64,000 nt of DNA from Nitrososphaerota archaeon (GCA_033581555.1 JAVQSZ010000001.1:96001-160000), one strand, 5' to 3'; counted from the stretch's first letter, positions 1 through 23,026 are shown. The notes: generated by a model not told the origin, from the sequence alone. Numbers and translations are program-made.

Positions 1-282
1 GAGTTCGATCAGGACGCGCTGGCGGAGGTCGCGGGGCTCATCAGGGAGGAACACCCGGACGCTGAGATCGTGGGCTGGTACCACTCTCACCCGGGATACG
101 GTTGCTTCATGTCCCCTACTGACATTCGCTCCCATACGACCTGTTTCCCCTATCCACATCAGGTCGCGCTCGTCATCGACCCAGTCAGAGGCGAGGCCTC
201 GTTCTTCAAGGTCGATGGGGAAGGGGATTACCGAACCGTCCCATCTGCGGTGGTGAGGAGGACGCGTGGTCAGGATCGTTGA
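1..282 (+). CDS. JAB/MPN+ (Rpn11/Mov34-like) metalloprotease, 5'-truncated by window edge
   Basis: Frame 1 is open from base 1 (EFDQDALAEVAGLIREEHPDAEIVGWYHSHPGYGCFMSPTD...VALVIDP); JAMM motif HxHx7Sx2D in Rpn11-like GWYHSHPGxGC context. Confidence 0.9.
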   Translation, partial: EFDQDALAEVAGLIREEHPDAEIVGWYHSHPGYGCFMSPTDIRSHTTCFPYPHQVALVIDPVRGEASFFKVDGEGDYRTVPSAVVRRTRGQDR

Positions 283-437
283 GGTAAGGGAGAGGGACGT
301 CAGGGAGGCTCCGCCCCCCGTTGACGGGGAATACGAGCTGATAGCTGTCGACTGGGAAGGCGTCGGTTACGATCTCTCGGACCTTTTGAGCCAGTTGGAA
401 GATGAAGCGAGCAGGGCTCGGACGGAAGACTAGGCGG

Positions 438-1217
438 TCAGGGTCCACGTCCTTCCGTGCCTCTTCGCGATATGCCCATGACGGCGGCCTTCGACTCGTT
501 CAGGGCCTTCGCTAGAAGGCGCTCCTTCGGGCCGAGCCTCGTCCCCAGCGCGCTAAGGGCGAAGTCGATCTCGGAGGTGACCAACCTCGCGACCTCCTCG
601 ATAAGTGGTTCAAGGGCACTCGAGCCCGACTCGTACTCCCTAAGGAGGACAGCCAAGTCGTCGCCGATGTAGAGGGCCCTGTAGATCGACCGATCAAGCC
701 TCTTGTAGAGTTTCCTGGAGATCCTGATGAGCCGCAGCTCCCAGAGGGCGAGGTCCAGCAGCGCCCGAGCCTCCCTCTCCCTGCCGAGGGACTTCAGTAT
801 TCCGAGCGACGCTACTGCGCCGATGAACGCCCTGTAGAGTTTGCCAGCCTCAGCGACCGTGAGGGGGATCAGCTTGGTGTTGAGCATGAAAGCGATCTGC
901 GCCTCGTCCTTCAACGTGAGGACACTCTTCGCCTCCTCGCCGATGGCCTTGGCTAGGTCCTCCTTGCTCTGCTGGTCTGCCAACAGCGATGACGACTGTT
1001 CTCTGACGTCCGTCCACGACTTGCTCACGGCCAGCATCTTATCGAGGAGCGCCCCTATCGAGGACTCCCCAATCAACGGCGCCTCGGAGACGTAAAGTAC
1101 AGTTGGAGGCGGTAGAACGTATTGATTCACCTTTAGGACCTTGGGTCTGCTTCTCTTCAGCGACTCAGTTCGCCCCCGAAAGAAGAGAGAGCCCGACCGA
1201 TGTCCGCCACGACTCAT
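438..1217 (-). CDS. Hypothetical alpha-helical protein, last gene of the minus-strand pilin-like operon
   Basis: 259-aa ORF; ATG overlaps the stop of the upstream gene (ATGA coupling at 1214-1217); no recognisable motif. Confidence 0.6.
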   Translation of the reverse strand: MSRGGHRSGSLFFRGRTESLKRSRPKVLKVNQYVLPPPTVLYVSEAPLIGESSIGALLDKMLAVSKSWTDVREQSSSLLADQQSKEDLAKAIGEEAKSVLTLKDEAQIAFMLNTKLIPLTVAEAGKLYRAFIGAVASLGILKSLGREREARALLDLALWELRLIRISRKLYKRLDRSIYRALYIGDDLAVLLREYESGSSALEPLIEEVARLVTSEIDFALSALGTRLGPKERLLAKALNESKAAVMGISRRGTEGRGP

Positions 1218-1672
1218 CCCCTGCTCACCGCTAGGATCCCGACCCTATCAGCGGAACAGGTAAGCCTCGCGGTCCACGCGGAGAACGACCTGGTCGGGTC
1301 ATAAGTTCCCCAGACGACCGAGAAGAGCCTGTGGCCTATCACGACGGTACCGTCGGAGTTCCTGACCAGCTTGATGACCGTGAAGTTCACTGAGACGCTC
1401 GGCGGTGCAACTGACGCGATGATGGCGAGGGCCTCGTCGACGGGGATGCCGTCCTCCCGGCATACTAGGGCCTCCATCTGACCGCGCTCCGTCAGGGCCG
1501 CGACCATTTTGTTAGCGAGCTCCTCGAGGTCATTCCTCTGCTCAGAGACCGAGACGGTCTTCATGGAGACGATCTGATAGAAGAGGACAATCCCTATGAC
1601 AATGATGATTGAGGCCAGGATCGCCTCAACGGTCCAAACCATCCCGAGACGCCTGGAGCTCGACGTCCTCAT
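1214..1672 (-). CDS. Pilin-like protein with class III-type signal peptide
   Basis: MRTSSSRRLG|MVWTVEAILASIIIVIGIVLFY: basic leader, Gly, hydrophobic helix; ATG at 1672 overlaps upstream stop; N-terminus recalls archaeal minor-pilin families (DUF7288-like, from memory). Confidence 0.65.
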   Translation of the reverse strand: MRTSSSRRLGMVWTVEAILASIIIVIGIVLFYQIVSMKTVSVSEQRNDLEELANKMVAALTERGQMEALVCREDGIPVDEALAIIASVAPPSVSVNFTVIKLVRNSDGTVVIGHRLFSVVWGTYDPTRSFSAWTARLTCSADRVGILAVSRG

Positions 1673-2409
1673 GACACACCACCCGACCAAGCCCAGACCT
1701 CCACGCTCAGGGTCACCCCGTTCTCTGATACGGTCGTCTCCGAAAGGTAAACCGCATCGGGCGGTATCGAGACCCTGGACGGCTCGACAAAGCGGCCCTT
1801 CACGAACGCCACCACTAATTCGGGGTATACAGCCGGCACGACGTGATAAGAAGACTCCGTGAAGACCACCACGGGCGACTCGAAGATAATCGGTGCGATC
1901 TCGTAACCGGACTCGACTACCGTTGACCCACCGTAATAGCAGAGGCTTGCGCTTCCAGAGACCCGTGTAGTTCCGTCTTCCCCGTAATTCACGAGGCGGG
2001 GATCGAGCCGCAGGCCCCTCACGAGGACGCCGTACTGCGTCACTACGATCGTACCCCCGCCTCCTGTCGCGCAGGTCGTGTAATCGGACGGGAACGAGAG
2101 GGCGACAGCAGGGCCCGATTGCACTATCCTCTGCGTGAACGAGACCCTTGCGACGAAGTCGACCCTGATTCCCCTGAAGTCGTAGGAAGGCGCTCCCACG
2201 TAGGCGGGGTTCAGGAAGAAGGCGTCCCTCGAGGACCTGGAGACGAGCGATTTGATGAGGTTAAGGGCCGCCCTCGACTCGACGCGGACCATCGCGTCCT
2301 CAGTGAAGGAGAGGTAGCTCGATGCTCCGGAGAGCGCGGAGAAGACTACTAGACCAGCGACTAGCGCGAAGAGCGAGACCCCGATTGCCGCGTCAACCAC
2401 CGCCTCCAT
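1669..2409 (-). CDS. Pilin-like / single-pass surface protein
   Basis: N-terminal hydrophobic helix VVDAAIGVSLFALVAGLVVF (DUF7287-like xDxAIGxSxF pattern, from memory), then beta-rich domain; AT-rich sequence upstream. Confidence 0.55.
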   Translation of the reverse strand: MEAVVDAAIGVSLFALVAGLVVFSALSGASSYLSFTEDAMVRVESRAALNLIKSLVSRSSRDAFFLNPAYVGAPSYDFRGIRVDFVARVSFTQRIVQSGPAVALSFPSDYTTCATGGGGTIVVTQYGVLVRGLRLDPRLVNYGEDGTTRVSGSASLCYYGGSTVVESGYEIAPIIFESPVVVFTESSYHVVPAVYPELVVAFVKGRFVEPSRVSIPPDAVYLSETTVSENGVTLSVEVWAWSGGVS

Positions 2410-2488
2410 TCTCGGTATATATCGGTCACCAACAGATAAGCATAATGCTGACTAGGGAAGGCAGATCTGTGAGAACGATTTATTACGT

Positions 2489-2815
2489 ATGAGCGCGGGG
2501 AGCGGCGGATTGGAGGACCTGCTCAAGAGGCTGAGGCTGGAGATCGTCGGCGACTTCAGGCAGTACCTGAACGCGCTTGAGCAGACCGGGGACGGCTCCT
2601 GGGAGGTGGCACTGACCGAGAAGGCAGAGGCCTTCGCGGGAACGATGGAGTGTCCGGTCGATAGGGAGGAGGTGCGGATCGAGGAGAGCGTGCTGTGCCC
2701 CATCTGTTACACGCCATATCACGTGGACTGTGCCAAGATCCTCGCCAGCAGGTCGGAGAAGTGCTGGAAGTGCGAGCGGTTCGACAGGTTCGACCTCCTT
2801 CTGAGGGGCAGGTGA
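2489..2815 (+). CDS. Small RING-finger protein (prokaryotic RING, E3-ligase-like)
   Basis: CPVD-x11-CPIC-x4-HxxC-x10-CWKC metal-ligand pattern (second ligand is Asp instead of Cys). Confidence 0.7.
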   Translation: MSAGSGGLEDLLKRLRLEIVGDFRQYLNALEQTGDGSWEVALTEKAEAFAGTMECPVDREEVRIEESVLCPICYTPYHVDCAKILASRSEKCWKCERFDRFDLLLRGR

Positions 2816-2821
2816 CGCAAA

Positions 2822-3679
2822 ATGAGCCTGGAGCACGAGGCGAGTCGTCGGATCCTGATCAGCCTGCTGACTGATCCTCACAGGTCAGGCAGGACAATTT
2901 ACTTCGACCCAGATGCGCTATCGGCGAGGCTGGGTGGACAGGCATGGGACCACCTCGAGGCGATGATCGAGCTGGGCGAGAAGGGGCTCATCAAGTTCCA
3001 CTTCACCAAGGAAGTGGAACTTCTGTTCAGGTTCATACGCGCAAGGGCGAGGCTTGAGCACGTGGCCGGGTTGAAAGAGGTGGATGAGGTCGCCGACGAG
3101 CTGAGGAAGGCGAAGATCCTCGGCAGGATCGTAGGGAGGGACCTCGAGGTGATTAGGGATCAGAGGGTTCCTGACCACCTCGAGGCGCTCAGGGCCCTCT
3201 CGGTTCAACTCGGCAAGCTGCTGAAGCTCCTCGAGGGGAAGAAACTGGTCAGCAGGGAGGTCTACGAGATGGTTGCAGCGTCAGTGCTGTCCCAGACCGC
3301 TAACGTCGTTCAGTCTACGGAGCAGGTCCTCTCCTCTCTCAGGACGGCCCTAGCCGAACTCGTGGAGGTGATGAACGCATTGATTCAAGAGCGGGCGAGG
3401 ATATTGGGGCTCCGCGACAGGCTAGGCTTCAATCTCGAGGAGCTCGACTTGGTGTCGAACTCCTACCTCTCGGGCATCGAGGAGTTCAGGCGCCTCCTTC
3501 AGCAGATCGATCGACTGTTGAGGGGAGCCATACCGAACTGGGACGAGGTGATAGGGTCAGCTCAAAAGATGAGCTCGGAGTTCGCGCAGAGGGCGCCATT
3601 CGTTGACGTCGTCCTTAAACAGATGACCTCCATCAACGAGATGCTGAAGGCTGGAATTGAGACTGAACTTGGCCGATGA
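2822..3679 (+). CDS. Hypothetical coiled-coil protein with possible N-terminal winged helix
   Basis: 285-aa helical ORF 6 nt downstream of the RING gene; wHTH-like 'LEAMIELGEKGLIKF'; degenerate SHOCT-like 'KKLVSREVYE'. Confidence 0.6.
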   Translation: MSLEHEASRRILISLLTDPHRSGRTIYFDPDALSARLGGQAWDHLEAMIELGEKGLIKFHFTKEVELLFRFIRARARLEHVAGLKEVDEVADELRKAKILGRIVGRDLEVIRDQRVPDHLEALRALSVQLGKLLKLLEGKKLVSREVYEMVAASVLSQTANVVQSTEQVLSSLRTALAELVEVMNALIQERARILGLRDRLGFNLEELDLVSNSYLSGIEEFRRLLQQIDRLLRGAIPNWDEVIGSAQKMSSEFAQRAPFVDVVLKQMTSINEMLKAGIETELGR

Positions 3680-4709
3680 GGAACTTCACCCTCTTGACCT
3701 CCTCGGTGACCCCCTCGAGTACCTTAAGCGCCCGCTGGAGCCTATCGATGGAACCGTTCACGAAGTTGAGGTTGAGGTCTGAGCCTACCCGGAGCAGGCT
3801 TCTCATGGCATCGAGCTGCTCGCGCAACCTCTCGATGCTCCTCTCGAGGACCTCAACGTCTGTTTTACGCCTGCGAGTGAGCTCAGAGGCCCTCCTGGTC
3901 AACTCATGATAAAGGAAGTCGTACTCATCTTGGCTGATCTCGCCTATGCCGAGTCTCGCCTTGAGGAGCTCGAACTCTAACTTCAACTCGGCGGGAATGT
4001 CCTCCTGACCCTCGTCCTCAAGGAACTGCTTCGCAAACGACTCTAGGACCTCCTCGACCACCTCGTTTGACCAGGACGCGGTCGCGACGAGCTGCTCGGG
4101 CTGGAGGTCTCCGATGATGGTTCTCAGCAAGTCCGCCTCGAGCTTCTCCCGAACCTTTGAGAGGGTCTCCAGGGCCTCGCTCCCGAGACCTTTCGACCCC
4201 TCGAGCATCACCATAGACTCCTCGACCTCCCTCAGCGACCTCAGAAGGTCCTCGATCACCGCTGAGTTCCGGTCCTTCGATCCCAGGTAGTTGATCAGCG
4301 AGGAGATTAGCAGCGACCTCCTCCTGAGCAGAACGCCCATGAGGCTCGGCGAGGGCGGGACGTCATTGAGCGACGACCCGGGGATCGACAGCACGAGCTC
4401 CGTCATGACCCTCCTTACGCTCTCGTACTCGTACTCCTCGACCTTCCCGGACATGAATCCGTAGTCGAGCAGCCGGATCGCTTGGATCAGCATCTCCTTG
4501 GCCTCCTCATGGTCGGGGACTCCGACGATCGAGACCAGCCCGAGGGACTGCAGCCTGATCAGCCCCATCAGGACCTTCAGCTCATCGAGCCTGACGGCCT
4601 CCGCGGCCCCCTTCAGATCCACACGGACTCTGCCCCCCCTCCTCGGTAGCGAGGTCAGGTGCTGGATCAGCCGCACGTCCTCCTCCCTTATGCTCAACCC
4701 GCACCTCAC
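3633..4709 (-). CDS. Coiled-coil protein with wHTH-like N-terminus and two SHOCT/CdvA-like motifs
   Basis: 'GLIRLQSLGLVSI' wHTH-like; 'LLDYGFMSGKVEEYEYE' and 'LKARLGIGEISQDEY' motifs; heptad-rich C-terminus. Confidence 0.6.
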   Translation of the reverse strand: MRCGLSIREEDVRLIQHLTSLPRRGGRVRVDLKGAAEAVRLDELKVLMGLIRLQSLGLVSIVGVPDHEEAKEMLIQAIRLLDYGFMSGKVEEYEYESVRRVMTELVLSIPGSSLNDVPPSPSLMGVLLRRRSLLISSLINYLGSKDRNSAVIEDLLRSLREVEESMVMLEGSKGLGSEALETLSKVREKLEADLLRTIIGDLQPEQLVATASWSNEVVEEVLESFAKQFLEDEGQEDIPAELKLEFELLKARLGIGEISQDEYDFLYHELTRRASELTRRRKTDVEVLERSIERLREQLDAMRSLLRVGSDLNLNFVNGSIDRLQRALKVLEGVTEEVKRVKFLIGQVQSQFQPSASR

Positions 4710-4766
4710 CAGCCGTGCCGAATAAAAGCCGTTCGTGGGACATTAGGGGTGAGGGAACCTCTCACG

Positions 4767-6290
4767 TCAGGTCAAGTACTTCGTGCCTCCATGGACGAGC
4801 GCCCTGTAGACGACCGCCGCGAAGGCCGCTACGTACACCGAAGCGGCCGCGATGACCGTCGGCGTCGGGGAGCTGGCCAAAGGTTCGAAAGTCCTGAGGA
4901 CGAGAACCGGGAGGGAGAGGAGGGCGGAGCCAGCTAGAGGGACGACGATGAAGACCAGCGAGCCCAGCGAGAGCGGCGATGACTCGATCCTGACAGTCAG
5001 GGACGTGAGCACCGCGAGCGCCGAGCCGAAGTAGGACATGGACGCGAGCAGGATCAGGTCCACCGCGAGGAACGGCAACTCCCCGACGCCTACCGAGACG
5101 AGCGAGTAGAGGAAGAGCGAGAACGGCAGGGTCACGGTCACGTAAGCCAGCAGGAGGCCCGAGAGGTACGGCCTCTCGCTCCAAGGTGACATCTTGACCA
5201 ACCAAAGGTTCCTCCGCTCCGAGAGGCCCCAGTTTATCGCCAGCAGGGCAGGGAGCAGGGGGACGTAGAGCGCAATCATCGTGAGCTGGGCCAGCTCGGG
5301 GAACGTGAACGACCCCATAATTCTCGGGACCGCGATGTTACCGAGCGTGAGCAAAACGAGGACCGTCGCACCCGTGAAAAGGCTACCCTCCCTGGCGACC
5401 CTCGTGAGGTGTAGGGCGTACATCAGTCCGGTTAGGCGGGAACTGGCCCTAAGTCCGAGCACCCGTAACAGGGCAGCTGGGACCGCAACGCGGCCCGTGA
5501 TCATCGTGGGCCTGTCCATTAACGCCGAGACCAGCAAGGGCGTTACCGAGGGGTAGAAGTTCGTCCCGGAGAGCCGAACGTAAACCGCCAGCGAGGCCGC
5601 GACGTAAGGAAGCAAGTACAGGAGGACTGAAGTTGAGCCTTCGGTCACCGCGTGGGAGAGGATCAGGGCTGGGTGATAACTGAGCTCTGACGGCCGGGGG
5701 ACTCCGAGCGCGGAGAGGCCCAAGGGCATCAGGACCGACGCCATTAGACCCCAGCCGAGCAACCTCGAACCCCTGTCGCCTAACTTCGTCCTCGAGAGCC
5801 CGATCACGTGGGACAGCATGATCGCCATCACCATCGCGATCGCGTAGCACGGTATGGCGACCGCTAGGTACGTCACATGGGCCGGGTAAGTGATTGTCCC
5901 AATCATGAGGGCGACTGGCGGAACGACGAAGAGGGAGAGCATGACGAACTGGAAGATCGCGTCCGAGACTAGGAAGGTCCTCGGCTTCACGCGCGACGGC
6001 AAGACGAAGTCGATCTCGTAGGGGAAGGCGGTGACCCCACCCTTCAGGCCGAGGTATATGCCGGCAGCCATGACGGCGGCCATGGTGACCTCGGTCAGGA
6101 CCGGAAGGAAGCCCGCGGGGCCTGACCCCGACACGACGCCCGCGACCCGGAGCGCGAGCGAGAAGAGGCCGGTCCCGACGAGCCAGAGTCCATAGACGAT
6201 GAACAAGAAGACGACGTTCCTCGGCCTACCGACGACGGGCCCCAAGTATTGGCGGAGTTTGACCCTCAGGAGGACGAAAGCGACCCTCAT
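4767..6290 (-). CDS. ABC-2-type exporter permease (multi-pass membrane protein)
   Basis: About 12 hydrophobic segments; 'EIDFVLPSRVKPR' permease-like motif; coupled to the ABC ATPase gene. Confidence 0.8.
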   Translation of the reverse strand: MRVAFVLLRVKLRQYLGPVVGRPRNVVFLFIVYGLWLVGTGLFSLALRVAGVVSGSGPAGFLPVLTEVTMAAVMAAGIYLGLKGGVTAFPYEIDFVLPSRVKPRTFLVSDAIFQFVMLSLFVVPPVALMIGTITYPAHVTYLAVAIPCYAIAMVMAIMLSHVIGLSRTKLGDRGSRLLGWGLMASVLMPLGLSALGVPRPSELSYHPALILSHAVTEGSTSVLLYLLPYVAASLAVYVRLSGTNFYPSVTPLLVSALMDRPTMITGRVAVPAALLRVLGLRASSRLTGLMYALHLTRVAREGSLFTGATVLVLLTLGNIAVPRIMGSFTFPELAQLTMIALYVPLLPALLAINWGLSERRNLWLVKMSPWSERPYLSGLLLAYVTVTLPFSLFLYSLVSVGVGELPFLAVDLILLASMSYFGSALAVLTSLTVRIESSPLSLGSLVFIVVPLAGSALLSLPVLVLRTFEPLASSPTPTVIAAASVYVAAFAAVVYRALVHGGTKYLT

Positions 6291-7021
6291 TCCCTCACCC
6301 GGGAGACCGTCCTCAAGAAGGCCTCTTCCAGCGACGCCGAAGAGTCGAGCCCCGCAGACCGCTTGAGCTCTTCGAGGCTCCCTGAGGCCAAATCTTTTCC
6401 ACGGTGGACGATCGTCGCCGAGTTGCAGACCCTCTCTATCGTGTCGAGGAGGTGCGTGCTGACCAGTACCGATCCCCCGCGCTTCGATATCTCCTTCATC
6501 TCCGCCTTAGCGACGCTCTGGACTTCGGGGTCGAGACCGTTAAAGGGCTCGTCGAGGACGAGGATGAGTGGGTCGTTGACGATCGCCGACGCGAACGCGA
6601 CCCGCTGCTTCAGGCCCTTCGAGAGGCCGAAGATCAGTTTGTCGAGGAGACCGTTCAACCCGAAGAGCTCCGCGACCTCCGAAACGCTGGTCTGCAACTC
6701 CCTCCCCCCGAGGCCCTTTAGCCTCGCGACGAAGACGAGGAACTCCCTCACGGTCAGGTACTCCGGTAGCGACGGGTTCTCGGGGAGGTACCCAATCAGG
6801 GACTTGTAGGAGACGTCCTCTGTGGCCGAGCGGCCCGCCACTCTGACATGGCCGCGGTCGGGCCTGAGCAGCCCCACGACGCACTTGACGGTCGTGGTCT
6901 TGCCCGCGCCGTTCAGCCCCAGGAGGCCGTGCACGCTCCCCGCCCTCACGGTGAGGTTGAGGCCCCGAACTGCTGGCTCTCCGTCGAAGCTCTTCCAGAG
7001 GTCCTTGACCTCGATCATCAT
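6287..7021 (-). CDS. ABC transporter ATP-binding protein
   Basis: Walker A GLNGAGKT, signature LSKGLKQ, Walker B LVLDEP, H-loop STH. Confidence 0.95.
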   Translation of the reverse strand: MMIEVKDLWKSFDGEPAVRGLNLTVRAGSVHGLLGLNGAGKTTTVKCVVGLLRPDRGHVRVAGRSATEDVSYKSLIGYLPENPSLPEYLTVREFLVFVARLKGLGGRELQTSVSEVAELFGLNGLLDKLIFGLSKGLKQRVAFASAIVNDPLILVLDEPFNGLDPEVQSVAKAEMKEISKRGGSVLVSTHLLDTIERVCNSATIVHRGKDLASGSLEELKRSAGLDSSASLEEAFLRTVSRVRE

Positions 7022-7162
7022 TCGGCCGATCGCCTCCCTCTCGGTTGTACTTCTGGCAGAACTTTGCCCTTTCTGCGACGCAGTAATAGAAAAAGTGCTT
7101 TCAGCGACTTTGGTCCTTACTCACGGGATACCCTTATCAATCGGTAACCGCATATACGCTCA

Positions 7163-8965: not shown

Positions 8966-8968
8966 CCC

Positions 8969-10630: not shown

Positions 10631-10631
10631 G

Positions 10632-12074: not shown

Positions 12075-12619
12075 GTAGAGGAGCGGTCGAAGACTTGAGG
12101 CGATCAGGACAGGCCAGCGTCACGTTCGTCGTTCTGACCGTTCTCCTAGCGCTGGTGGGCCTAGGTTACTCGATGGCCACCGTGCAGCTGAGCGCGGTCG
12201 AGTCACCGGTGTGGGACGCGGTCGAGTCGATTAACAGGGCGATCCAGAAGGTCTACGGTTTACCGGAAAAGTCCCTGACACTTACCGTTTACGTGCCGAA
12301 GGACTCCGCGATTAGGATCGCAGCGCAGGGGGAGGACCGGTTGGTGATCGAGGCGACCGGCGCCTTCGGCGACAGGAGGTACAGAATCCTCGACGCTGAC
12401 GCGTGGAACATCCTCGACGAGAGGGCGATGAGGCTGACCACCGACGGCCTGCTGACGACGGTGTACGGCAAGCCCCCCGAGTTGCCGATCACGCTCTCCA
12501 ACCGTGAGGTCGTCCTCGGACCCGGGAGGCATACGATCGTACTCAGGAACCTGAACGGATACGTGCTTCAGCTCTTGGTCATCGAGCAAGGGGTTCCGAC
12601 CGAGGTGATCAGGAGGTGA
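12071..12619 (+). CDS. Pilin-like protein
   Basis: RRSG|QASVTFVVLTVLLALVGLGY class III-like signal; overlapping start/stop with both neighbours. Confidence 0.7.
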   Translation: MSRGAVEDLRRSGQASVTFVVLTVLLALVGLGYSMATVQLSAVESPVWDAVESINRAIQKVYGLPEKSLTLTVYVPKDSAIRIAAQGEDRLVIEATGAFGDRRYRILDADAWNILDERAMRLTTDGLLTTVYGKPPELPITLSNREVVLGPGRHTIVLRNLNGYVLQLLVIEQGVPTEVIRR

Positions 12620-17088: not shown

Positions 17089-17092
17089 AGGC

Positions 17093-17896
17093 TTGAGGTC
17101 TAGGGCAGGGCTCAGCACCGCGGTTCAGACGGCGGCGCTCATCGCGATCACCGCTGGCCTTGCCGTCGCTGTGGTGGCGCTCTGGAGACCTTGGGAGGCA
17201 TCGGGTCAGGCCCAGTCGGCCGCGGTCGCCGTCAGGGTACAACAGATCCACGACCTCCTACTCAGGAGGGAGGGGGCCGTGGTCCTCGCCCATCCCGTGA
17301 TCGTGCGGCCCTTCGCGGAGGCCCACGTGATCGAGGTCGAGTGGAAAGGGAGGAGCGTGATGATACCCGCGGTGGTCAGTGCGATTGAGTACGTGGCTCC
17401 GAAGCAGAGGATCCCCGGAATATACTACCTTGAGCGCGGAATGGTGGACGTCCTGGGCGATTACATCGCGGGTAAAAGGTTGAACTACACGACTACGGGG
17501 ATAGACGTGGTGACATACGCGGTCTACGAGGAGAATGAGGTCAGGATCGTGACCAAAACGCTCCCCTACATCTCGTACTCAATAGATAGGGTGTACAACG
17601 ACGTCGTGGTGACCGTGATGGTCAGGGTGGTCTTCGTTACCCCGTCCCACGCCGACCCCGAGACCTATGGGAGGGTACTGCAAAACGGATACGTCGCGGC
17701 GCCGGGAGACACGCTGACCTTCAGGCTCAACGCCACCCGGAGGACGTTCTACCAGCTCCCCGAGTCGGTGGACGGCGGATCCCTCAGGGTGCTCGTCGAC
17801 GGCGTCGAGGTCCCCCAGTTCAGGTTCTCTACGAGCGAGAGGGCCATCTTCAGGGTCTTCGTCGACTACGTGACCGTCATGGTCTGGGCGAGGTGA
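17093..17896 (+). CDS. Pilin-like protein
   Basis: RSRAG|LSTAVQTAALIAITAGLAVAVVALW class III-like signal, then beta-rich domain. Confidence 0.7.
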   Translation: MRSRAGLSTAVQTAALIAITAGLAVAVVALWRPWEASGQAQSAAVAVRVQQIHDLLLRREGAVVLAHPVIVRPFAEAHVIEVEWKGRSVMIPAVVSAIEYVAPKQRIPGIYYLERGMVDVLGDYIAGKRLNYTTTGIDVVTYAVYEENEVRIVTKTLPYISYSIDRVYNDVVVTVMVRVVFVTPSHADPETYGRVLQNGYVAAPGDTLTFRLNATRRTFYQLPESVDGGSLRVLVDGVEVPQFRFSTSERAIFRVFVDYVTVMVWAR

Positions 17897-17901
17897 GCTG
17901 A

Positions 17902-18375
17902 GTGACCACCTCGTACACCTACATCGTGACGATCGGCGTGATCATGCTGGTGACGTTCACGACCGCGGCCCTCTTCCTCCAACAGGTGAACTCAGTGGAC
18001 TACGCGGCCAAGAGGTCCGCCCTCTCGGTGGCCGCGTCCCACGTGCTCTCCGGGATCTGGAGCGCGGTCGAGGAGGTGAAGCTGACCCAATCGGGAAGGG
18101 AGTTCAAGTCCGTCTCGGTCGGTTTCCCCTTCAGGGCTGAGATAGGGTCCAGTCCTAGGACCGGAGATCTGGTGGTGTGCGTGACCGCTATGGGGATAAC
18201 CTATGAGAGGCCCTTACCCGTGATACAGGGAGTCCAATACGTCCCCTCGGCCTCCGGAGGGGACCGGGTCGGAGTGCTGGTCGAGATGTCGGGAGGGAGG
18301 GCCTCGGTCAGGCTGGTCAACGTCGGTAATGACGGAAACCTGATCTCTGACAACCCCGGCCTCTGCCTGAGATGA
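17902..18375 (+). CDS. Small pilin-like protein
   Basis: TTSYTYIVTIGVIMLVTF N-terminal helix then an amphipathic helix (DUF7266-like pattern, from memory); in operon. Confidence 0.55.
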   Translation: MTTSYTYIVTIGVIMLVTFTTAALFLQQVNSVDYAAKRSALSVAASHVLSGIWSAVEEVKLTQSGREFKSVSVGFPFRAEIGSSPRTGDLVVCVTAMGITYERPLPVIQGVQYVPSASGGDRVGVLVEMSGGRASVRLVNVGNDGNLISDNPGLCLR

Positions 18376-19850
18376 GCCTCAAGGGCCTCGCAGTGGTCGC
18401 GCTCCTGACGGCCGTCCTCCTCCTCCAGTCAGCCGGTGCAGCGGAGACTGCGGTCCGCGAGGCCCCGACCGTCGTCAAGGCTAGGTTGGCAGTTGACGCA
18501 TCGTGCTCCGGTGTTATGACCTACGTGGTAGACGCGGAGGAGGCCAAGAGGGCTGGGCTCTGGAGGCTCTGGCTCCTCCTGCCCAAGGAGCCACTGAGGT
18601 GGAGCGTGGAGCCGCACGCGGTCCACGAGGTCTCCGATCTACCGGAGGGATCAGAGGGCAGAAGGGTCTACAGCAACGTGACCTTCGACCTCAGCTCAAT
18701 CGAGGGCCTCCTGACGGTCTCCTTCAGGATGGACCACGCGTGCCTCGTGAACGGGGACCGGGGCCTATTACTGACGCCGCTGGTCTCTTACGGACCGCCG
18801 ATCAGGGGCGAGCTAGAGATCACCTTAGAGGGCCTCGTGGAGGGGGTTAGGTCCGTCGAGCCGTGGTCGCCTCACGTAGAGGTCCACAACCGGTCGCTCT
18901 CCGTTCGCCGCGAGCTTCCCCTCACCGTCAACAGGGTCGCGATCGACTTCAGGCCCGTGGAAGAGCCCTTCTACCTCGTCTCTTCAAGGGGGTTCAGCGT
19001 CAAGACCCATCAACGCTACGCGCAGGTCGCCGCAGCGGTCATCGACGCCCTAGCGAACGCCAGCGACTACCTGAAGGCCGTCTTCGGCGAAGACGTCCCG
19101 GATGTGACGGTGGAGTTCTTCCTGCCCCGAGACTACCGGTCCGGCCCCGAGGGCTTCGCCCCCGTCCCGTCGGGCGGCTCGAGGGTTATCGGGCTCAACT
19201 TGATCCTCCTCAGGAGGCCGCAGGGGTACTTGGAGGTGATCGCGGTCCACGAGCTAGTCCACCATTACCTCTTCGAGGTCGGCGTAGGTGCGGGCGCGAC
19301 TTGGTTCCACGAAGGCCTCGCGGTCTACTTCTCCCTCGAGCTGGGGGAGCGGCTGAGGCTGGAGGGCGCGCGGGTGATGAGGGAGCTGATCATGCAAGAG
19401 GCGTCCCGTTCGAGGCAGATCAGGCTGAGCGAGTGGAAGCCCGGTGAGTCCAGAGACAGCGACTGGTACGCGACCGCCTTCGCTCTGATCGAGGGGCTCT
19501 TCAGGCTCGACCCCGCAGGCATGTCTAAGGCCCTCCTCAGCCTGAGAGACGAGAGGAGATGGATATCATCGGGAGAGGCTGCGGCCGAGTACCTCGCGAA
19601 GCACCTCAACGAAGAGGCGTTAGGGCTGCTTAGGGAGGCCGGACTTCTCCCAAAGGTGAGTAGGCACTCAGACGACGGATCGACGGCTTCGGCCACGACG
19701 GTCACTGAGACGCGCGGAGATGCTACAACCGACTCCGACAATCACGACCGAAGCGGGACGATTGCGATTGACGAGGAGCTCCTTCTAATAAGCCTGGCGA
19801 CCGCCGCTATCGTGGTCTCGCTCCTCGCGATCAGGGACGCAAAGTCCTAA
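18372..19850 (+). CDS. Secreted, C-terminally anchored gluzincin (peptidase MA/M1-like) metalloprotease
   Basis: Signal peptide; HELVH plus WFHEGLA third ligand; S/T-rich linker and C-terminal TM. Confidence 0.85.
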   Translation: MSLKGLAVVALLTAVLLLQSAGAAETAVREAPTVVKARLAVDASCSGVMTYVVDAEEAKRAGLWRLWLLLPKEPLRWSVEPHAVHEVSDLPEGSEGRRVYSNVTFDLSSIEGLLTVSFRMDHACLVNGDRGLLLTPLVSYGPPIRGELEITLEGLVEGVRSVEPWSPHVEVHNRSLSVRRELPLTVNRVAIDFRPVEEPFYLVSSRGFSVKTHQRYAQVAAAVIDALANASDYLKAVFGEDVPDVTVEFFLPRDYRSGPEGFAPVPSGGSRVIGLNLILLRRPQGYLEVIAVHELVHHYLFEVGVGAGATWFHEGLAVYFSLELGERLRLEGARVMRELIMQEASRSRQIRLSEWKPGESRDSDWYATAFALIEGLFRLDPAGMSKALLSLRDERRWISSGEAAAEYLAKHLNEEALGLLREAGLLPKVSRHSDDGSTASATTVTETRGDATTDSDNHDRSGTIAIDEELLLISLATAAIVVSLLAIRDAKS

Positions 19851-19875
19851 AACAACCGGTTTGACCAGCGTCGGT

Positions 19876-20700
19876 TCAGCTCGACGAACTCTCCACTTGA
19901 TACCCTAGCTCGAGCAGCCTGTTCACGTACTCGTTCTTGAGCTTGTTGTAGACCTGCTCGTTGATCTTCCCGGTCCTGTAGTTCTCCTCGAGGACCCTGA
20001 GGAAGTTCAGGTACCTGACCACCTCAGCCGGGAGCTGTTGGGGTTGTCCGGTCGGGGGCTCGCCGGCAGGCACGATCATCGGCCTGACCTCGACGGCGGG
20101 TTCGCGCCGCTCAGCGAGATCGGGGGCCTCAGCCTCCCTCCGGGTCGCCTCTTCCGTGACACGCTGAACGCCGATCTCCCATGACGACCGAATGCGGGAC
20201 ACGAGAACGTTCAGTCCCATCTTAGGCTTTGTCAGCAGCAAGTAAACGACGTAGAGCGAGATTGCCCCGCTCCACGCAAGCAGACCCAAGAGGGCCGCCG
20301 TCGCGGCACCCAGGGCAATCAACCCGAACGGGTGCGGGACGACTCCATAGACTACCGAGGGGACTGCAGCGATCACGGCCAGCCTGATCAAGTTGTCCCT
20401 CTTCAGAGGTATGTTCACGAGCCCCCTAGTGGCGAGGAAGAGGGCCACTGCCAGGACGATTACCAACCCGGCAACCCCGGACGCTAACTGAGCGACCGCG
20501 ACGAGGAAGAGAGAGAAGACGAGATAGATGATGAGGACGTCCACTCCCTTAACCATCGAGACGAAAGCCGCCAAAACCCCGATGATGATCAGCGTGAGGA
20601 TCAGACTCAGGACGCCGCCCGTGGCATAAGCGGCTGAGGTCAACAGGGCTATGAACGTCGCAACGAAAATGTCCCGCCTCAGGAATTGCTTGAGTTTCAA
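19876..20700 (-). CDS. Multi-pass membrane protein with C-terminal SHOCT-like motif
   Basis: About 6 TM segments; 'LRVLEENYRTGKINEQVYNKLKNEY'. Confidence 0.65.
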   Translation of the reverse strand: MKLKQFLRRDIFVATFIALLTSAAYATGGVLSLILTLIIIGVLAAFVSMVKGVDVLIIYLVFSLFLVAVAQLASGVAGLVIVLAVALFLATRGLVNIPLKRDNLIRLAVIAAVPSVVYGVVPHPFGLIALGAATAALLGLLAWSGAISLYVVYLLLTKPKMGLNVLVSRIRSSWEIGVQRVTEEATRREAEAPDLAERREPAVEVRPMIVPAGEPPTGQPQQLPAEVVRYLNFLRVLEENYRTGKINEQVYNKLKNEYVNRLLELGYQVESSSS

Positions 20701-20794
20701 AGGTGTTCACAGCGTCGAGCGCGGGGGACCTAATTAAACATTAGGAGAAAACCGGCTAGCAAACTAATAATATGAAGGTTAGGGATATCCAGAT

Positions 20795-23026
20795 GTGAAG
20801 GTGAGGACTTTCTCCCCAATATTCGTGATCGCTTTGGTGGTCTCCAGCTTCGCGGTGATTTGGACGCCGGTGGGGGCTGAACCGTCAAAGGCGCCCATAG
20901 ACCTGCCGATCAAAGCACCGCTGGAGGTCAACGTGATACTCGCGGGGTTCTCAAGTCGGGACCTCGGGGTGACGCCCGCGGAGTTAGAGGGACTACTCTC
21001 GCGCCTCGTCAGGAGCGAGGCCGTCGCCTACGCGGGCTTCTTCATGGAGGATCCCTATGTGGTCGCGCTCTTCGACGTCGAGCTGACGGTGATCGAGGCC
21101 GACGCCAGGCTGAACTCGGAGATACGGGCGCTGTTCGGACGTGTCTCCTATGACCCCGCTGCCTTGCCGATCGACGTGAGGAACAGCTTCGTGAGGTACG
21201 TGTCGTTCGTTAGGGAGTACTATGGAACTACGTTCGCGATCCGGTTGAACGACAGGATGACGGACATCGCAGCGCTCACCCTCGGATTAGTCTCGCTCAC
21301 GAACAGGTTCCTCCCACAGATCACCGACGGATACAACATTTACCTGATTTGCGGACTGCCCTTCACTGGCAATAAGTTTCCCGTATACTTCTCCGCCGGG
21401 CAGACTGTCGAGCGCGGAAACGGCATAGGAGCGGTGGGTATGAACCTGTACGGCGGGATAGGGACATACAGGTACGTCGTCCTCGACATTTGCGCAATCC
21501 CAAACCCATTCGGCAACTTCGCGCCGAAGACGGAAGAGGACGTCGAGAAGTATTTGCCGCCAGCGCTCTACAGGGGCCCGCGAGACCAGATCCAAGCGAT
21601 CGCCATGTACGTCGACGAGATAATAGACAACCTATTCGTTAAGAGTCTCATCTATGTCCCGAGGTATCAGGTGACCTTTCTCTTCGACGTAGTGGTGATA
21701 GACATGACCACGACCGGAGGAGGACTGCAGTTCATAGTCTCAAACTTCATACCTGAGATATTCGAGTCGGCGATGAAGTGGCTGATGCCGTACAACTTCT
21801 ACACGAGCAGGTTTCACTACAGGACTATTGCGGAGGCCGCGGTGATGAGGCAAGCCATCTCCGTCCATAGGGGCATTCAGATAATCGACGTCGAGAGGGC
21901 CTTCACGCTTGCCGAGAGGACGGGGCTGATCCCCCCGGCACCGTCTGGAGTAACGAGGATACCGGTGTTGATCTTCCTCTCCGACGCCGACATCTACCCG
22001 AGCTCGCCTGGAACGATAGGGATAGCGTGGCCCGACCTTAGCGACCCGAGGTACCCGAGGGGTGCAGTCGTGGGGTTGAATTACAGGTTCGTCGAGAGGG
22101 AAGGGCTGACCTTGGTCACGATTCACGAGGCCGCCCACACCCTCGGGCTGGCCCATCCACACGACGACCTCGACGAGACTGATCAAGAGGTCATTCGACC
22201 GGGCAAGTCGAAGCCGCAGGTCAAGACGAGATGGGTCTTCAGCTGGGCAGAGACCGCGATGTCCTACGCAGACGTCCCCCAGGTCGTCAATCAGAGGGTG
22301 ATCTACCCGGGAGCGTATCCGTTGAGGACCTACTTCAGCGCCTTCGACCTCGACGCGATCGACAGGGCGGTCGTGACGCTGCTGCTCGGGTACTACCTGA
22401 ACTACAGGGAGGAAGTCATGAAGAAGCTGAAGGAGTCGGGTCTCCGACTGGAGGACATACCTGAGGCCGAGAAGCTCCTGAGGGAGGCCGACAAAGCGGC
22501 TGTTAACGCGGTCAGCCTGTTCAGGGACCACAACTACTTCGACAGGTTTGGGTTCGCGGGACTCGGAGCCCAACTTGAAACGGCCTTCGACTACGCGTGG
22601 AAGGCCTTGACCGACGTCATCGAGCTCTACGACAATGTGGAGGGCGCGAGGCAAGCGATCGAGTCTACTCGGCCGTTGATTAGGAAGCTCGAGAGCGAAA
22701 TCAGTGATCTGAGGTCGACGGTCGAGAGTCTGAAGGGGAGGCTCGATGCTGCCACCGCCCGTGCCGAACAGTTGCAGAGGTCCCTGAGCCAAGAGGCGCA
22801 GGAGAGGCAGAGGATCCAACAGGAGCTGGAATTAACGAAGAGCGACCTCACCAGGGCGAGGACGGAGCTTGAGCTGACCAAGAACAACCTCTCAGCCGCG
22901 AGGTCCGAGGTCAATACCTACCTCATGCTCGCAGCAGCGGGAATGGTGGCGGCAGCCGGATCGGCCGCTTTCGCGATAGCGAGCAGGCGCGGATCAAGGC
23001 CACGCGTCCTAACCTCGTCCACCTAG
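20795..23026 (+). CDS. Secreted membrane-anchored metzincin metalloprotease with coiled-coil stalk
   Basis: Signal peptide; HEAAHTLGLAH zinc motif; Met-turn TAMSY; long coiled coil; C-terminal TM and basic tail. Confidence 0.85.
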   Translation: MKVRTFSPIFVIALVVSSFAVIWTPVGAEPSKAPIDLPIKAPLEVNVILAGFSSRDLGVTPAELEGLLSRLVRSEAVAYAGFFMEDPYVVALFDVELTVIEADARLNSEIRALFGRVSYDPAALPIDVRNSFVRYVSFVREYYGTTFAIRLNDRMTDIAALTLGLVSLTNRFLPQITDGYNIYLICGLPFTGNKFPVYFSAGQTVERGNGIGAVGMNLYGGIGTYRYVVLDICAIPNPFGNFAPKTEEDVEKYLPPALYRGPRDQIQAIAMYVDEIIDNLFVKSLIYVPRYQVTFLFDVVVIDMTTTGGGLQFIVSNFIPEIFESAMKWLMPYNFYTSRFHYRTIAEAAVMRQAISVHRGIQIIDVERAFTLAERTGLIPPAPSGVTRIPVLIFLSDADIYPSSPGTIGIAWPDLSDPRYPRGAVVGLNYRFVEREGLTLVTIHEAAHTLGLAHPHDDLDETDQEVIRPGKSKPQVKTRWVFSWAETAMSYADVPQVVNQRVIYPGAYPLRTYFSAFDLDAIDRAVVTLLLGYYLNYREEVMKKLKESGLRLEDIPEAEKLLREADKAAVNAVSLFRDHNYFDRFGFAGLGAQLETAFDYAWKALTDVIELYDNVEGARQAIESTRPLIRKLESEISDLRSTVESLKGRLDAATARAEQLQRSLSQEAQERQRIQQELELTKSDLTRARTELELTKNNLSAARSEVNTYLMLAAAGMVAAAGSAAFAIASRRGSRPRVLTSST

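Follow-up and report, generated by a model that had tools for sequence, protein, structure and literature searches.

The genes described here form a cluster of about 26.2 kb (G000:C1:92811-119026) in the genome of a Caldarchaeales hot-spring archaeon. The cluster starts about 3.2 kb upstream of the window, i.e. the whole 64,000-nucleotide stretch of DNA that was analysed, and ends at window position 23026. It encodes a pilus assembly ATPase and platform, five proteins that carry a canonical class III leader and two more pilin-like proteins, together with an intact E1, a ubiquitin-E2 fusion (Ub-E2), a JAMM protease and a RING-like finger, and the clustering of these genes is conserved. A preliminary description of the window had listed a FlaI/VirB11-type ATPase, TadC, six pilin-like genes, a 1490-aa protein, a JAB protease, an ABC pair and two zinc-motif proteins, and this gene content was largely right. 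Missed were the genes outside the window or at its edge: the ThiF-type E1, the ubiquitin-E2 fusion, a seventh, canonical pilin and a 234-aa membrane protein. Taken as a whole, its observation was partly confirmed and its interpretation partly supported.

The assembly ATPase (7163-8965, plus strand) belongs to the FlaI/VirB11/TadA superfamily (Pfam T2SSE, 3.7e-22) and has a Lys/Glu-rich tail of about 100 aa. Its best NCBIfam match was the bindosome ATPase BasE (226 bits, cut-off 1000); FlaI scored 213 bits (cut-off 550), and both scores are far under the cut-off. None of the NCBIfam-named families fits. In an ATPase phylogeny, which the preliminary description had proposed as a check, the protein falls in a nine-row clade (support 100), itself part of a group of 27 rows (support 98) that also includes Thermofilum-type and FHA-fused Thermoproteales ATPases. 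The TadC/ArlJ-type platform (8969-10630, plus strand; T2SSF 3.7e-7) is multi-pass by hydropathy and reached 75 bits with the NCBIfam UpsF model, whose cut-off is 400. The A24 (PibD/FlaK-type) prepilin peptidase lies where the preliminary description had placed it, at 48723-49445 on the minus strand (Peptidase_A24 4.6e-11, Arc_PepC_II 3.4e-7). It was the single match genome-wide and is the sole one in the assembly.

Four of the six pilin-like genes in the window carry a canonical basic-G/A class III leader. The pilin pil158 (1214-1690, minus strand) has the leader RRLG followed by a hydrophobic helix, matched DUF7288 weakly (2.6e-5) and is 28% identical to a minor pilin of a locus in the distant Thermoprotei genome G417. 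The large pilin pil480 (10632-12074) has 480 aa, and the minor pilins pil182 (12071-12619) and pil267 (17093-17896) have the leaders RSG then Q and RAG then LS, respectively; all three genes are on the plus strand. The other two, pil246 (1669-2409, minus strand) and pil157 (17902-18375, plus strand), have only the pilin-like N-terminal hydrophobic helix; no leader is recognisable in pil246 and that of pil157 is short and atypical. The seventh pilin, of 137 aa, comes from a gene shortly before the window, flanked by those for E1 and Ub-E2. It has a canonical leader and is small and highly conserved, which is typical of a major subunit. When a pil267 profile was run on 401 genomes of the phylum, full-length matches were found only in three genomes of genus g1 (G000 included), and the remaining matches were weak and partial (E 2.5e-4 or worse).

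The body of pil480 is a hypervariable cassette (DNA 10823-12109). G000 and G002 are 87% identical up to 10822 and then show no match before 12110; the GC content over 10001-12000, the pil480 region, is 0.539. Between loci that are otherwise 96-100% identical, the pil480 proteins share 26-39% identity, which indicates that the body is swapped, while the next downstream pilin is 87-98% identical. The variable bodies have a common framework with invariant Cys75 and Cys471 and other motifs, and the family gave 13 matches in 1.84 billion representatives. The pre-toxin-like motifs previously ascribed to pil480 could not be substantiated, as the Pfam search gave no family and no toxin domain. No immunity gene was found beside pil480: no gene lies before the next pilin, and that pilin does not co-vary.

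The giant1490 gene (12616-17088, plus strand) is an ORF of 1490 aa. Its product starts with a signal peptide, an N-domain and a Pro-rich linker, followed by hydrophobic segments near residues 366-393, 397-427, 591-626 and 656-674, a long helical region and a C-terminal domain with six P-F-x-P-[FW]-P-I-E repeats. The protein had been regarded as cargo; the signal peptide and at least four further hydrophobic segments speak against this, and it is predicted to be a polytopic membrane protein and not an obvious cargo. The AF2 model has a pLDDT of 44.8 and is confident only for a helical bundle (727-865). The family forms 11 clusters in 5.8 billion proteins, and no relatives of giant1490 or the accessory pilins were detected outside the lineage.

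Two further proteins are secreted and, like giant1490, have ordinary Sec-type signal peptides and not class III leaders. The 492-aa Zn492 (18372-19850, plus strand) is C-terminally anchored and contains HExxH (H293, E294, H297) and a downstream glutamate (E314), all invariant in six orthologues; it has no Pfam family and no PDB relative. In sec743 (20795-23026, plus strand), which has a C-terminal coiled coil and a membrane anchor, the HExxHxxGxxH motif (H444, E445, H448, G451, H454) is invariant in seven orthologues, no Pfam family was found and PDB matches were to the coiled coil only. The preliminary description had counted both as membrane-anchored zinc proteases of the system. Motifs, secretion and anchoring are borne out; a place among the constant parts is not, since the two are not consistently linked to the cluster. 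Zn492 was seen only in two of the gene orders described below (I and II), and HExxH is absent from five large secreted proteins encoded in the G417 locus.

Several other genes accompany the pilus genes. The helical cytoplasmic protein g259 (438-1217, minus strand) has no Pfam or NCBIfam family, gave only helical-repeat noise in a PDB profile search and in every gene order directly follows the JAB gene in convergent orientation. Both cc285 (2822-3679, plus strand; no Pfam family) and cc358 (3633-4709, minus strand; no Pfam family above cut-off) have a winged-HTH-like N-terminus and a coiled coil. Their hhalign alignment covers only the N-terminal HTH region (E 8.6e-4, probability 24%), and residues 6-74 of the low-confidence Atlas model of cc358 gave target-normalised TM scores of 0.66-0.68 with small HTH_36 proteins. 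The multi-pass membrane protein mem274 (19876-20700, minus strand) has a helical cytoplasmic tail and occurs in gene orders I-III. The preliminary description had named SHOCT/CdvA-like proteins; this was not confirmed, as Pfam returned no such match for cc285, cc358 or mem274, which are two winged-HTH and coiled-coil proteins and one membrane protein.

The second group of genes encodes a ubiquitin-like cascade. Positions 1-282 (plus strand) are the 3' part of a 160-aa JAB/JAMM protease gene that starts 200 nt upstream of the window (G000:C1:95800). Pfam JAB was matched at 1.7e-8 by the fragment in the window and at 3.8e-14 by the whole gene, which bears out the earlier assignment, and the JAMM motif H-S-H-P...S-P-T-D is invariant in five orthologues. 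Upstream of the window lie the E1 (Pfam ThiF, 3.7e-46) and the Ub-E2 fusion (UQ_con 31 bits, cut-off 27; ubiquitin 23 bits), in which the ubiquitin ends in GG before an E2 with HPN and the cysteine. Catalytic and GG motifs of the cascade are invariant in 5-6 orthologues. The RING/PHD-like zinc finger RING108 (2489-2815, plus strand), always directly upstream of cc285, is a candidate E3. Its identification as a RING finger is weak (Pfam Prok-RING_1 1.6e-3 and PHD_2 3e-3, both below cut-off); its Cys/His pattern is invariant in five orthologues.

Since a canonical E2 and E1 pair is present elsewhere in the genome (contig C7), the cascade of the cluster is a second, separate ubiquitin-like system. 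The full-length Ub-E2 fusion was found in five of the 76 genomes of the class, all of genus g1 (G000 included), and the other genomes gave only weak matches to separate ubiquitin or E2. The fusion forms nine protein clusters, and in these searches the fused form occurs only in this lineage. Outside it, the next-best E2 matches that carry names were all Asgard E2s (30-51% identity, with alignments that span between about a quarter and two thirds of the query); the majority of rows are unnamed.

The preliminary description had treated JAB and RING genes as belonging with the pilus, and their lack of conservation beside pilus genes in relatives would have spoken against it. The pilus and ubiquitin genes are kept together across four gene orders in relatives and in G417. 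Ub-E2 and JAB are on the same DNA piece as the ATPase in seven of nine metagenome loci containing the ATPase gene, and they share its contig in G000, G001, G002, G004 and G006, so for the ubiquitin genes the association holds. The two modules are interleaved in each order: the E1 and Ub-E2 genes flank that of the major pilin in order I, E1 has mem274 and sec743 on either side in order II, and RING108 is oriented divergently to two pilin genes. The most divergent loci of the lineage, L055 and L056, have the seven-gene core alone, with no ubiquitin gene within 1.4 or 3.2 kb upstream; the rest of these contigs is short. In this pair the central part of giant1490 is mosaic. No cluster was seen in G003, a genome of the same genus that is 84% complete. 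In G001 a cluster of 24.7 kb is kept in different flanks, while synteny around it is broken every 1-5 kb. Two unrelated modules could be held together if the entire cluster were transferred as a single block.

In G417 (GC 0.40) the pilus and ubiquitin genes are again together, with an ATPase 40% identical to that of the window. The order there is ubiquitin (ending GG-stop), E2, JAB, a winged-HTH and coiled-coil protein and ThiF, followed by the major pilin, ATPase, TadC and five pilin-like genes. By E-value the window cascade is closer to that of G417 (ThiF 46%, 1e-84; E2 36%, 4e-39) than to the canonical one of its own host (ThiF 45% over 165 aa, 1e-32; E2 24%, 1e-5). Among 121 genomes of the G417 order, the ATPase clade and the E2 were each found in one, the same genome. 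G418 has a G417-type locus at a contig start (ATPase 98%), and its whole assembly yielded no E2; none turned up in G541 either, where the ATPase is at 45%. All Caldarchaeales loci are kin, which leaves two independent lineages with both modules.

We found no description in the literature of a type IV pilus-like machine paired with its own ubiquitin-like enzymes. The words ubiquitin, JAB and Aigarchaeota/Caldarchaeales are absent from the main text of both Makarova et al. 2016 (PMC4858521) and the T4F census of 2026 (PMC13705601). The complex clade-4 pilus loci of Thermoproteales and Thermofilum, as those main texts describe them, come closest. They share an ATPase with a single TadC and one PilA-like major pilin accompanied by several minor pilins that evolve very fast. 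Large proteins that are secreted or anchored at the C-terminus, additional membrane proteins and small helical proteins of the cytoplasm are common to both as well, and the window ATPase groups with the Thermofilum-type and FHA-fused Pyrobaculum/Thermoproteus ATPases. Unlike in those descriptions there is no MinD/FleN gene here, and the accessory pilins and the giant protein are without detectable relatives outside the lineage. The cascade resembles the E1/E2/RING/Rpn11 operon of Caldiarchaeum subterraneum (PMC5654768) in its ThiF-type E1, UBC-type E2 with HPN and Cys, RING-like finger, JAMM protease and ubiquitin ending in GG. Here, however, the genome has a canonical E2-E1 pair in addition to this second copy, whose ubiquitin is fused to E2 and whose genes are interleaved with pilus genes.

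We give a probability of about one half to the reading that the cluster encodes a lineage-specific type IV pilus-like filament for recognition or adhesion, controlled by a dedicated ubiquitin-like cascade. The suggested coupling of pilus and cascade is drawn entirely from synteny. ATPase and TadC would polymerise the well-conserved 137-aa pilin, and the operon-encoded minor pilins would prime the filament. Exposed probably at the tip, pil480 with its body swapped between near-identical strains may form a strain-specific recognition or adhesion surface, and giant1490, whose exposed middle is also mosaic, may be a co-assembled envelope or filament-associated component. By cutting the Ub-E2 precursor, JAB would free the ubiquitin, which E1, E2 and the RING-like protein, together with the winged-HTH and coiled-coil partners, would attach to regulators of the machine or to a cytoplasmic part of it, thereby switching assembly or turnover. 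There is experimental precedent in C. subterraneum, whose Rpn11 cleaves N-terminal ubiquitin fusions (PMC5654768).

The tip and anchor roles are analogies, because both structure models are of low confidence. Bacterial minor-pilin operons include a large non-pilin partner, PilY1 or PilC, and GspK is the tip pseudopilin of the T2SS. The cluster likewise has a very large protein among its minor pilins and one oversized pilin as a candidate tip subunit, but no sequence or fold similarity was shown and giant1490 has internal membrane segments. The Ups pili of Sulfolobales achieve species-specific recognition by pilin variation. Here too pilin variation could set partner specificity, although the UpsF score is far from its cut-off, there is no UpsX and nothing points to UV control. 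PilY and Ups pili are both mentioned in the main text of the T4F census (PMC13705601).

It is possible, though we consider it unlikely, that an ordinary, complex adhesion pilus and a stand-alone cascade are two unrelated modules travelling together on one horizontally mobile island and not affecting each other, the cascade serving general protein turnover or, as bacterial E1/E2/JAB operons do (bioRxiv 10.1101/2023.09.26.559546), antiviral defence. Bacterial Bil and type II CBASS operons combine E1, E2, JAB and a ubiquitin-like protein, with a cyclase or effector as neighbours. The enzyme set is the same here, and ThiF and JAB weakly matched the PADLOC models for CBASS E1-E2 and JAB (1.1e-14 and 1.4e-5). 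The distribution is patchy, GC ranges from 0.47 to 0.61 among the cluster-bearing loci and is 0.40 in G417, flanks differ, L055 and L056 have the core operon alone, and G255 has a ubiquitin module on a 12.4-kb contig without a pilus ATPase. However, PADLOC found no system beyond these generic E1 and JAB matches, a RING-like finger is present and the conserved neighbours are pilus genes, unlike in the bacterial antiviral operons. Moreover, the modules are interleaved rather than juxtaposed and were re-shuffled four times but never separated, and no integrase or tRNA was found at the cluster borders.

Rather improbable is a T2SS- or bindosome-like device, in which a short pseudopilus places or releases giant1490 and the zinc-motif proteins at the surface and no long adhesive pilus is made. 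The many minor-pilin-like genes, the secreted or anchored proteins encoded inside and next to the operon and the BasE match would suit it. Yet neither BasE nor BasF comes near its cut-off (1000 and 1300), a conserved major-type pilin exists, the proposed clients have Sec-type signal peptides and the zinc-motif proteins come and go. Contact-dependent delivery of toxins or effectors, as proposed in the preliminary description, with pil480 as a polymorphic toxin and giant1490 as cargo, is very improbable: a conserved N-terminus with a body replaced between near-identical strains is the population pattern of polymorphic toxins, but the bodies share a framework instead of carrying unrelated C-terminal domains, no toxin or pre-toxin family was found in Pfam, no immunity-like gene co-varies and giant1490 appears membrane-embedded.

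The ABC pair on the minus strand (4767-7021) consists of a 507-aa multi-pass permease (4767-6290) and a 244-aa ATPase (6287-7021; ABC_tran 3e-28). It had been included in the system as an exporter. In the context of the cluster it occurs only in gene order I, and copies (70% and 52% identical) adjoin a different, simple pilus locus in the sister genus g3; the two genes are probably neighbours and not part of the system.

The pilus genes at the start of the window stand in one cluster with the genes of a predicted ubiquitin-like cascade, and the cluster begins upstream of the window. The window is G000:C1:96001-160000 of an assembly of 1.43 Mb, 90.6% complete. On the adjoining stretch L029 (G000:C1:84000-96300), glutamate synthase, succinyl-CoA ligase, ETF and a metallo-beta-lactamase-fold gene are followed by four cluster genes and then by JAB. 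The four encode a 234-aa N-terminally anchored protein, a ThiF-type E1, a 137-aa pilin with a textbook class III leader and a 276-aa protein, Ub-E2 (L029:10960-11790; G000:C1:94959-95789), in which a ubiquitin-like domain ending R-P-V-G-G is joined to a UBC-type E2. The gene inventory of the preliminary description was largely right but incomplete, as these four genes, E1 and Ub-E2 among them, had been missed.

JAB (1-282, plus strand; ORF list and family scan) starts 200 nt upstream of the window. It is followed by the helical cytoplasmic protein g259 (438-1217, minus) and two pilin-like genes (1214-1690 and 1669-2409, minus), all three read from the ORF list and translation, by a small RING/PHD-like finger, RING108 (2489-2815, plus; family scan, below cut-off), by the winged-HTH-like coiled-coil proteins cc285 (2822-3679, plus) and cc358 (3633-4709, minus), and by an ABC permease with an ABC ATPase (4767-7021, minus; family scan). 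The plus strand then carries the assembly ATPase (7163-8965), the TadC platform (8969-10630), a 480-aa pilin (10632-12074), a 182-aa pilin (12071-12619), a 1490-aa giant protein (12616-17088), a 267-aa pilin (17093-17896), a 157-aa pilin-like protein (17902-18375) and a secreted, anchored HExxH protein, Zn492 (18372-19850). From the ATPase through Zn492 (7163-19850) the genes overlap or nearly abut and form one tight operon. The multi-pass membrane protein mem274 (19876-20700, minus) and sec743 (20795-23026, plus), a secreted HExxHxxGxxH protein with a coiled coil and an anchor, complete the cluster. We placed its end at 23026 because the genes to the right encode a uracil-DNA glycosylase, a PhoU-like protein, a PEP mutase/isocitrate lyase and a thiolase. 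No tRNA gene lies within the window or at either cluster border, and the scanned genes flanking the cluster include no integrase.

In the Pfam scan the ATPase matched T2SSE (78.9 bits, cut-off 24.9) and the platform T2SSF (30.6 bits, cut-off 25.2). Class III leaders, read by eye as a basic residue and G/A followed by a hydrophobic helix, are present in five proteins and kept in their orthologues. The A24 peptidase reported in the preliminary description was confirmed at 48723-49445 on the minus strand, and it is the sole match in the genome (43.5 bits, cut-off 26.5). As known from genes alone, the ATPase, platform, leader-bearing substrates and peptidase would make up an archaeal type IV filament (T4P/T4F) gene set. 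By these scores the ATPase is no FlaI equivalog of the archaellum (213 bits, cut-off 550), and the set also falls short of the bindosome (BasE 226 bits against 1000 and BasF 67.5 against 1300) and Ups (UpsF 75 bits against 400) equivalogs.

The ATPase was placed in a FastTree phylogeny of 114 rows, comprising 111 of the 120 listed database matches and three added rows, with proteins below 380 or above 800 aa left out; the rows are database matches with their source names. It falls in a clade of nine rows (support 100) inside a 27-row group (support 98), which also holds a Thermofilum-type clade (10 clusters) and the FHA-fused ATPases of Pyrobaculum/Thermoproteus. Its relatives beyond the nine-row clade, from Thermoprotei and Thermofilum MAGs, share 42-48% identity with it. 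Caldarchaeales also have a third ATPase paralogue (G000:C7:36967-37512, G001:C2:304086 and G008:C1:872458) with open frames of 830-1100 aa; database relatives of such length carry the intein families PF14890 and PF14528.

E1 (ThiF, 157.6 bits, cut-off 28.1), the E2 part of Ub-E2 (UQ_con, 31 against 27) and JAB (52.9 against 22.5) matched their families; in PADLOC, E1 and JAB gave only generic matches. The ubiquitin part scored about 23 bits for both ubiquitin and Rad60-SLD, just under the cut-offs, and RING108 was below cut-off for Prok-RING_1 (18.8 against 29.1) and PHD_2 (17.4 against 28). The GxGxxG nucleotide loop and two CxxC pairs of E1, the HPN and downstream Cys of E2, the JAMM motif of JAB and the Cys/His pattern of the finger are invariant across 5-6 orthologues, as is the R-P-V-G-G end in 6. 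A separate E2-E1 pair of canonical type is present on G000 contig C7, with another JAB elsewhere on that contig. The full-length Ub-E2 fusion was found only in five genomes of genus g1, G000 included, among 76 of the class, and makes up nine clusters in the protein database; weak matches are ordinary separate Ub and E2, in 75 of the 76 Caldarchaeales genomes. Because of this canonical pair and the lineage-limited fused form, we regard the cluster as bearing a second, dedicated ubiquitin-like cascade, as predicted from its genes. The adjacent JAB would process the Ub-E2 precursor, and such processing is supported by PMC5654768, in which the Rpn11 of Caldiarchaeum is reported to cut ubiquitin from proteins that carry it as an N-terminal fusion. 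Outside the lineage most of the next-best database rows for the E2 domain are unnamed; those with a name all belong to Asgard archaea (30-51% identity) and none to other Caldarchaeales. Further PADLOC matches near the 0.01 threshold, two each for g259 (typeIV_Cas11) and RING108 (PDC-M06A), were set aside.

Within the genus, G002 and G004 share the gene order of the window and G001 differs. There the pilin/RING/coiled-coil block is at the left, g259 and the ATPase are immediately preceded by Ub-E2 and JAB, the membrane protein is separated from sec743 by the 234-aa gene and E1, the 137-aa pilin comes after sec743, and the ABC pair is absent. The flanks of this 24.7-kb cluster map to G000 contig C8, and the 13.5 kb to its left are a patchwork of blocks from five G000 contigs; the cluster therefore stays together where ordinary synteny fails. 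A search of metagenome contigs with the alignment of the giant protein yielded 15 loci and, among them, two further gene orders, with GC from 0.47 to 0.61 among cluster-bearing loci. Ub-E2 and JAB are present in 7 of the 9 metagenome loci that contain the ATPase gene. The other two (L055 and L056) have the most divergent giant protein and show the seven-gene core alone, the upstream DNA of 1.4 or 3.2 kb carrying a glycosidase and a transposase fragment. A 63%-identical ATPase (P0081) and a 65%-identical Ub-E2 (P0030) probably share one 17,197-bp contig.

By scanning named genomes with the Thermofilum-type ATPase alignment we found the same combination in G417, a MAG labelled Desulfurococcaceae (GC 0.40), in which a single contig holds both the Ub module and the pilus genes. 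The order is a Cys-rich 118-aa protein, a 93-aa ubiquitin-like protein that stops exactly at GG, E2 (UQ_con, 29.4 bits), JAB, two proteins without a known family, a winged-HTH coiled-coil protein (HTH_IclR, 24.9 bits, cut-off 22), an opposite-strand helical protein, ThiF, a membrane protein, a 982-aa secreted protein, a major pilin, the ATPase, TadC and five pilin-like genes. The ATPase is 40% and TadC 37% identical to those of the window. By E-value, the window and G417 cascades are closer to each other than the window's is to the canonical enzymes of its host: ThiF 46%, 1e-84 against 45% over 165 aa, 1e-32; E2 36%, 4e-39 against 24%, 1e-5; JAB 36%, 2e-33 against 35%, 5e-16. The Ub-E2 fusion of the window's lineage looks like the product of a stop codon lost between two adjacent genes. 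In a sample of 121 genomes of the order of G417, the ATPase clade and E2 were both found in G417 alone. As homologues of g259, cc358, cc285 and sec743, the positional counterparts in G417 reached hhalign probabilities of just 0.3-11%, with matches limited to N-terminal, HTH or coiled-coil regions, and are therefore called analogous.

Some results speak against the link. In G418, a MAG labelled Thermofilaceae, a contig begins with this pilus locus (ATPase 98%), and E2 was found neither in the assembly of G418 nor in any of the 41 genomes of its order; G541, with a 45% ATPase, likewise gave no E2. The near-identical loci of G417 (L085) and G418 (L086) lie in species-representative MAGs labelled as different families, which points to recent transfer or a binning problem.

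The association of pilus and ubiquitin genes proposed in the preliminary description is, as judged from gene order, real as a conserved and repeatedly reshuffled synteny in one lineage, together with one distant lineage. Here the ubiquitin-type cascade (E1, a self-priming Ub-E2, a JAMM protease and a RING-like E3 with winged-HTH/coiled-coil adaptors) may be built into an archaeal type IV filament machine as its control module, all 25 kb having moved between Thermoprotei and Caldarchaeales as one piece; we give this tentative reading a chance of about one in three. The functions of the cluster are predicted throughout, and what would be new is the coupling of such a cascade to a filament machine, which we infer from synteny. 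If true, it would provide the first example of a prokaryotic surface-filament or secretion apparatus with ubiquitin-like signalling of its own. Interest in archaeal ubiquitin-like cascades comes from their place as forerunners of the eukaryotic system, and to our knowledge hardly any of their natural targets have been identified. The dedicated copy stands beside a few well-defined candidates for modification (the pilus ATPase, the platform, g259 and the two winged-HTH/coiled-coil proteins), so the purpose of archaeal ubiquitylation would become directly testable in vitro.

The pilus half has known parallels. PMC4858521 and PMC13705601 describe complex type IV loci of Thermoproteales in which minor pilins that evolve extremely fast are accompanied by large proteins of adhesin-like or anchored type, additional membrane proteins and small cytoplasmic proteins of helical make-up, and this content fits the pilus half of the cluster. 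The main texts of both papers, as far as available, do not contain the words ubiquitin, JAB, Aigarchaeota, Caldiarchaeum or Caldarchaeales, and their supplements may list Caldarchaeales loci. Papers dealing with the Caldiarchaeum cascade or with Aigarchaeota genomes make no mention of pili in their accessible parts, and our literature search found no paper joining pilins with JAMM/E1-like genes in archaeal gene neighbourhoods. The cascade would be a new kind of accessory module for the fast-evolving clade-4 pilus systems.

The 480-aa pilin is hypervariable. The DNA of G000 and G002 is 87% identical up to 10822 and 83% from 12110 onward, and over the pilin body (10823-12109), where GC drops to 0.539, no match between them was detectable. 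Protein identity of this pilin is 39% in G001/L061 and 26% in L063/L064, with the other genes at 96-100% (a few somewhat below this in the L063/L064 pair). Common to the 13 members of the family are the leader, some short motifs and a pair of invariant cysteines. An AF2 model from the 13-row alignment had a mean pLDDT of 50.7 and was usable only at about residues 45-175 (helices and a sheet); with this low-confidence model Foldseek gave no PDB match at E <= 0.001, and the best one, at 1.7e-2 (TM 0.10), carries no meaning. The same allele was present on contigs of four DNA sequencing runs. A 571-bp G000 contig, C58, carries a second allele of residues 124-317 (window 11000-11582; 80% DNA and 69% protein identity), explained either by a mixture of strains in the sample or by a silent copy.

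A conserved N-terminus with a body swapped among strains is also what a polymorphic toxin would have, and the preliminary description had read this protein as a pilin with pre-toxin-like motifs. No toxin or pre-toxin Pfam family was found in it, and the next gene, which overlaps it by 4 nt, does not co-vary as an immunity gene would, staying 87-98% identical where the pilin is 26-39%; hypervariability is therefore no evidence of toxicity.

The giant protein had been taken for cargo, which does not agree with its Sec-type signal peptide and four or five hydrophobic segments. An N-terminal domain and a proline-rich linker are also present, as are a long helical region, which matches Baculo_PEP_C weakly and below threshold, and six P-F-x-P-[FW]-P-I-E repeats in the C-terminal part. 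Between L055 and L056 it is 60% identical, with every other compared gene at 98-100%; per 50-column window the first ~150 and last ~280 residues are 82-100% and the middle 8-30% identical. Among 15 genera of the class it was found in g1 only (a g4 match is weak, E 6.5e-4). The family has 11 clusters in 5.8 billion proteins, its closest homologue being named as Candidatus Caldarchaeales archaeon, and the profile of the 267-aa pilin (pil267) is likewise confined to the lineage. Residues 291-1490 were modelled by AF2 from 11 rows with a pLDDT of 44.8, too poor for use, as was the model of the 480-aa pilin, and the Atlas structure search gave no usable match. In the repeat region (16826-17000), three of four hot-spring DNA runs (X2, X3 and X6) have a joint that goes back 175, which suggests that repeat number varies between strains.

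The variation of the pilin and the giant has the signature of exposed recognition surfaces that recombination would exchange. The pilin provides a clear case of cassette-like replacement between near-identical strains, a pattern that suggests pressure from viruses or for recognition in hot-spring communities. If the control-module reading is true, the 480-aa pilin and the giant would be swappable parts of the filament that confer strain-specific recognition, either between cells or related to viruses.

For the two proteins described as membrane-anchored Zn proteases, the zinc-binding motifs stood: H444, E445, H448, G451 and H454 are invariant in 7 sequences of sec743, and H293, E294, H297 and E314 in 6 of Zn492. 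A protease family did not, as neither has a Pfam or NCBIfam family or a PDB relative by sequence or profile; these PDB searches, g259 included, gave coiled-coil or helical-repeat noise at most. Zn492 was seen in gene orders I (that of the window) and II (which includes that of G001) only, sec743 and mem274 in orders I-III. The SHOCT/CdvA assignment was dropped, with no such Pfam match at E <= 0.01 for 2822-3679, 3633-4709 and 19876-20700; in the Atlas comparison cc358 had N-terminal HTH likeness alone, from a poor model.

The ABC exporter, earlier counted as part of the system, is treated here as a neighbour, the pair being seen only in the window's gene order. In the sister genus g3 the pair (70%/52% identity) adjoins a simple pilus locus with one Pilin_N pilin and glycosyltransferases, and the ABC-adjacent ATPase falls in another major tree branch. 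The pair, kept there beside a different pilus ATPase, therefore looks like the older resident of the chromosomal site. Further coordinates of the pair are L018:6738-9034 and L019:528-2776, and the g3 neighbour pilus ATPase is 36% identical.

A further result against the link comes from G255 (GC 0.38), where Ub-E1-E2-JAB lie beside a winged-HTH/coiled-coil/RING-like protein, a small membrane protein and a large vWA protein, with no pilus ATPase on this 12.4-kb contig. The first of these (L094:5396-6700), a 434-aa protein adjoining the Ub-E1-E2-JAB operon, joins a winged HTH, a coiled coil and a C-terminal RING-like finger and may resemble a fusion of RING108 and cc285 (RING108 against the finger end, pairwise E just 0.024). 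Just downstream of the core operon of L056 lies a gene for a secreted protein with a divergent InlB B-repeat (L056:14634-16652). A gene at the end of the G255 contig (L094:11714-12463) encodes an evidently similar N-terminus, and a transposase fragment is found near both.
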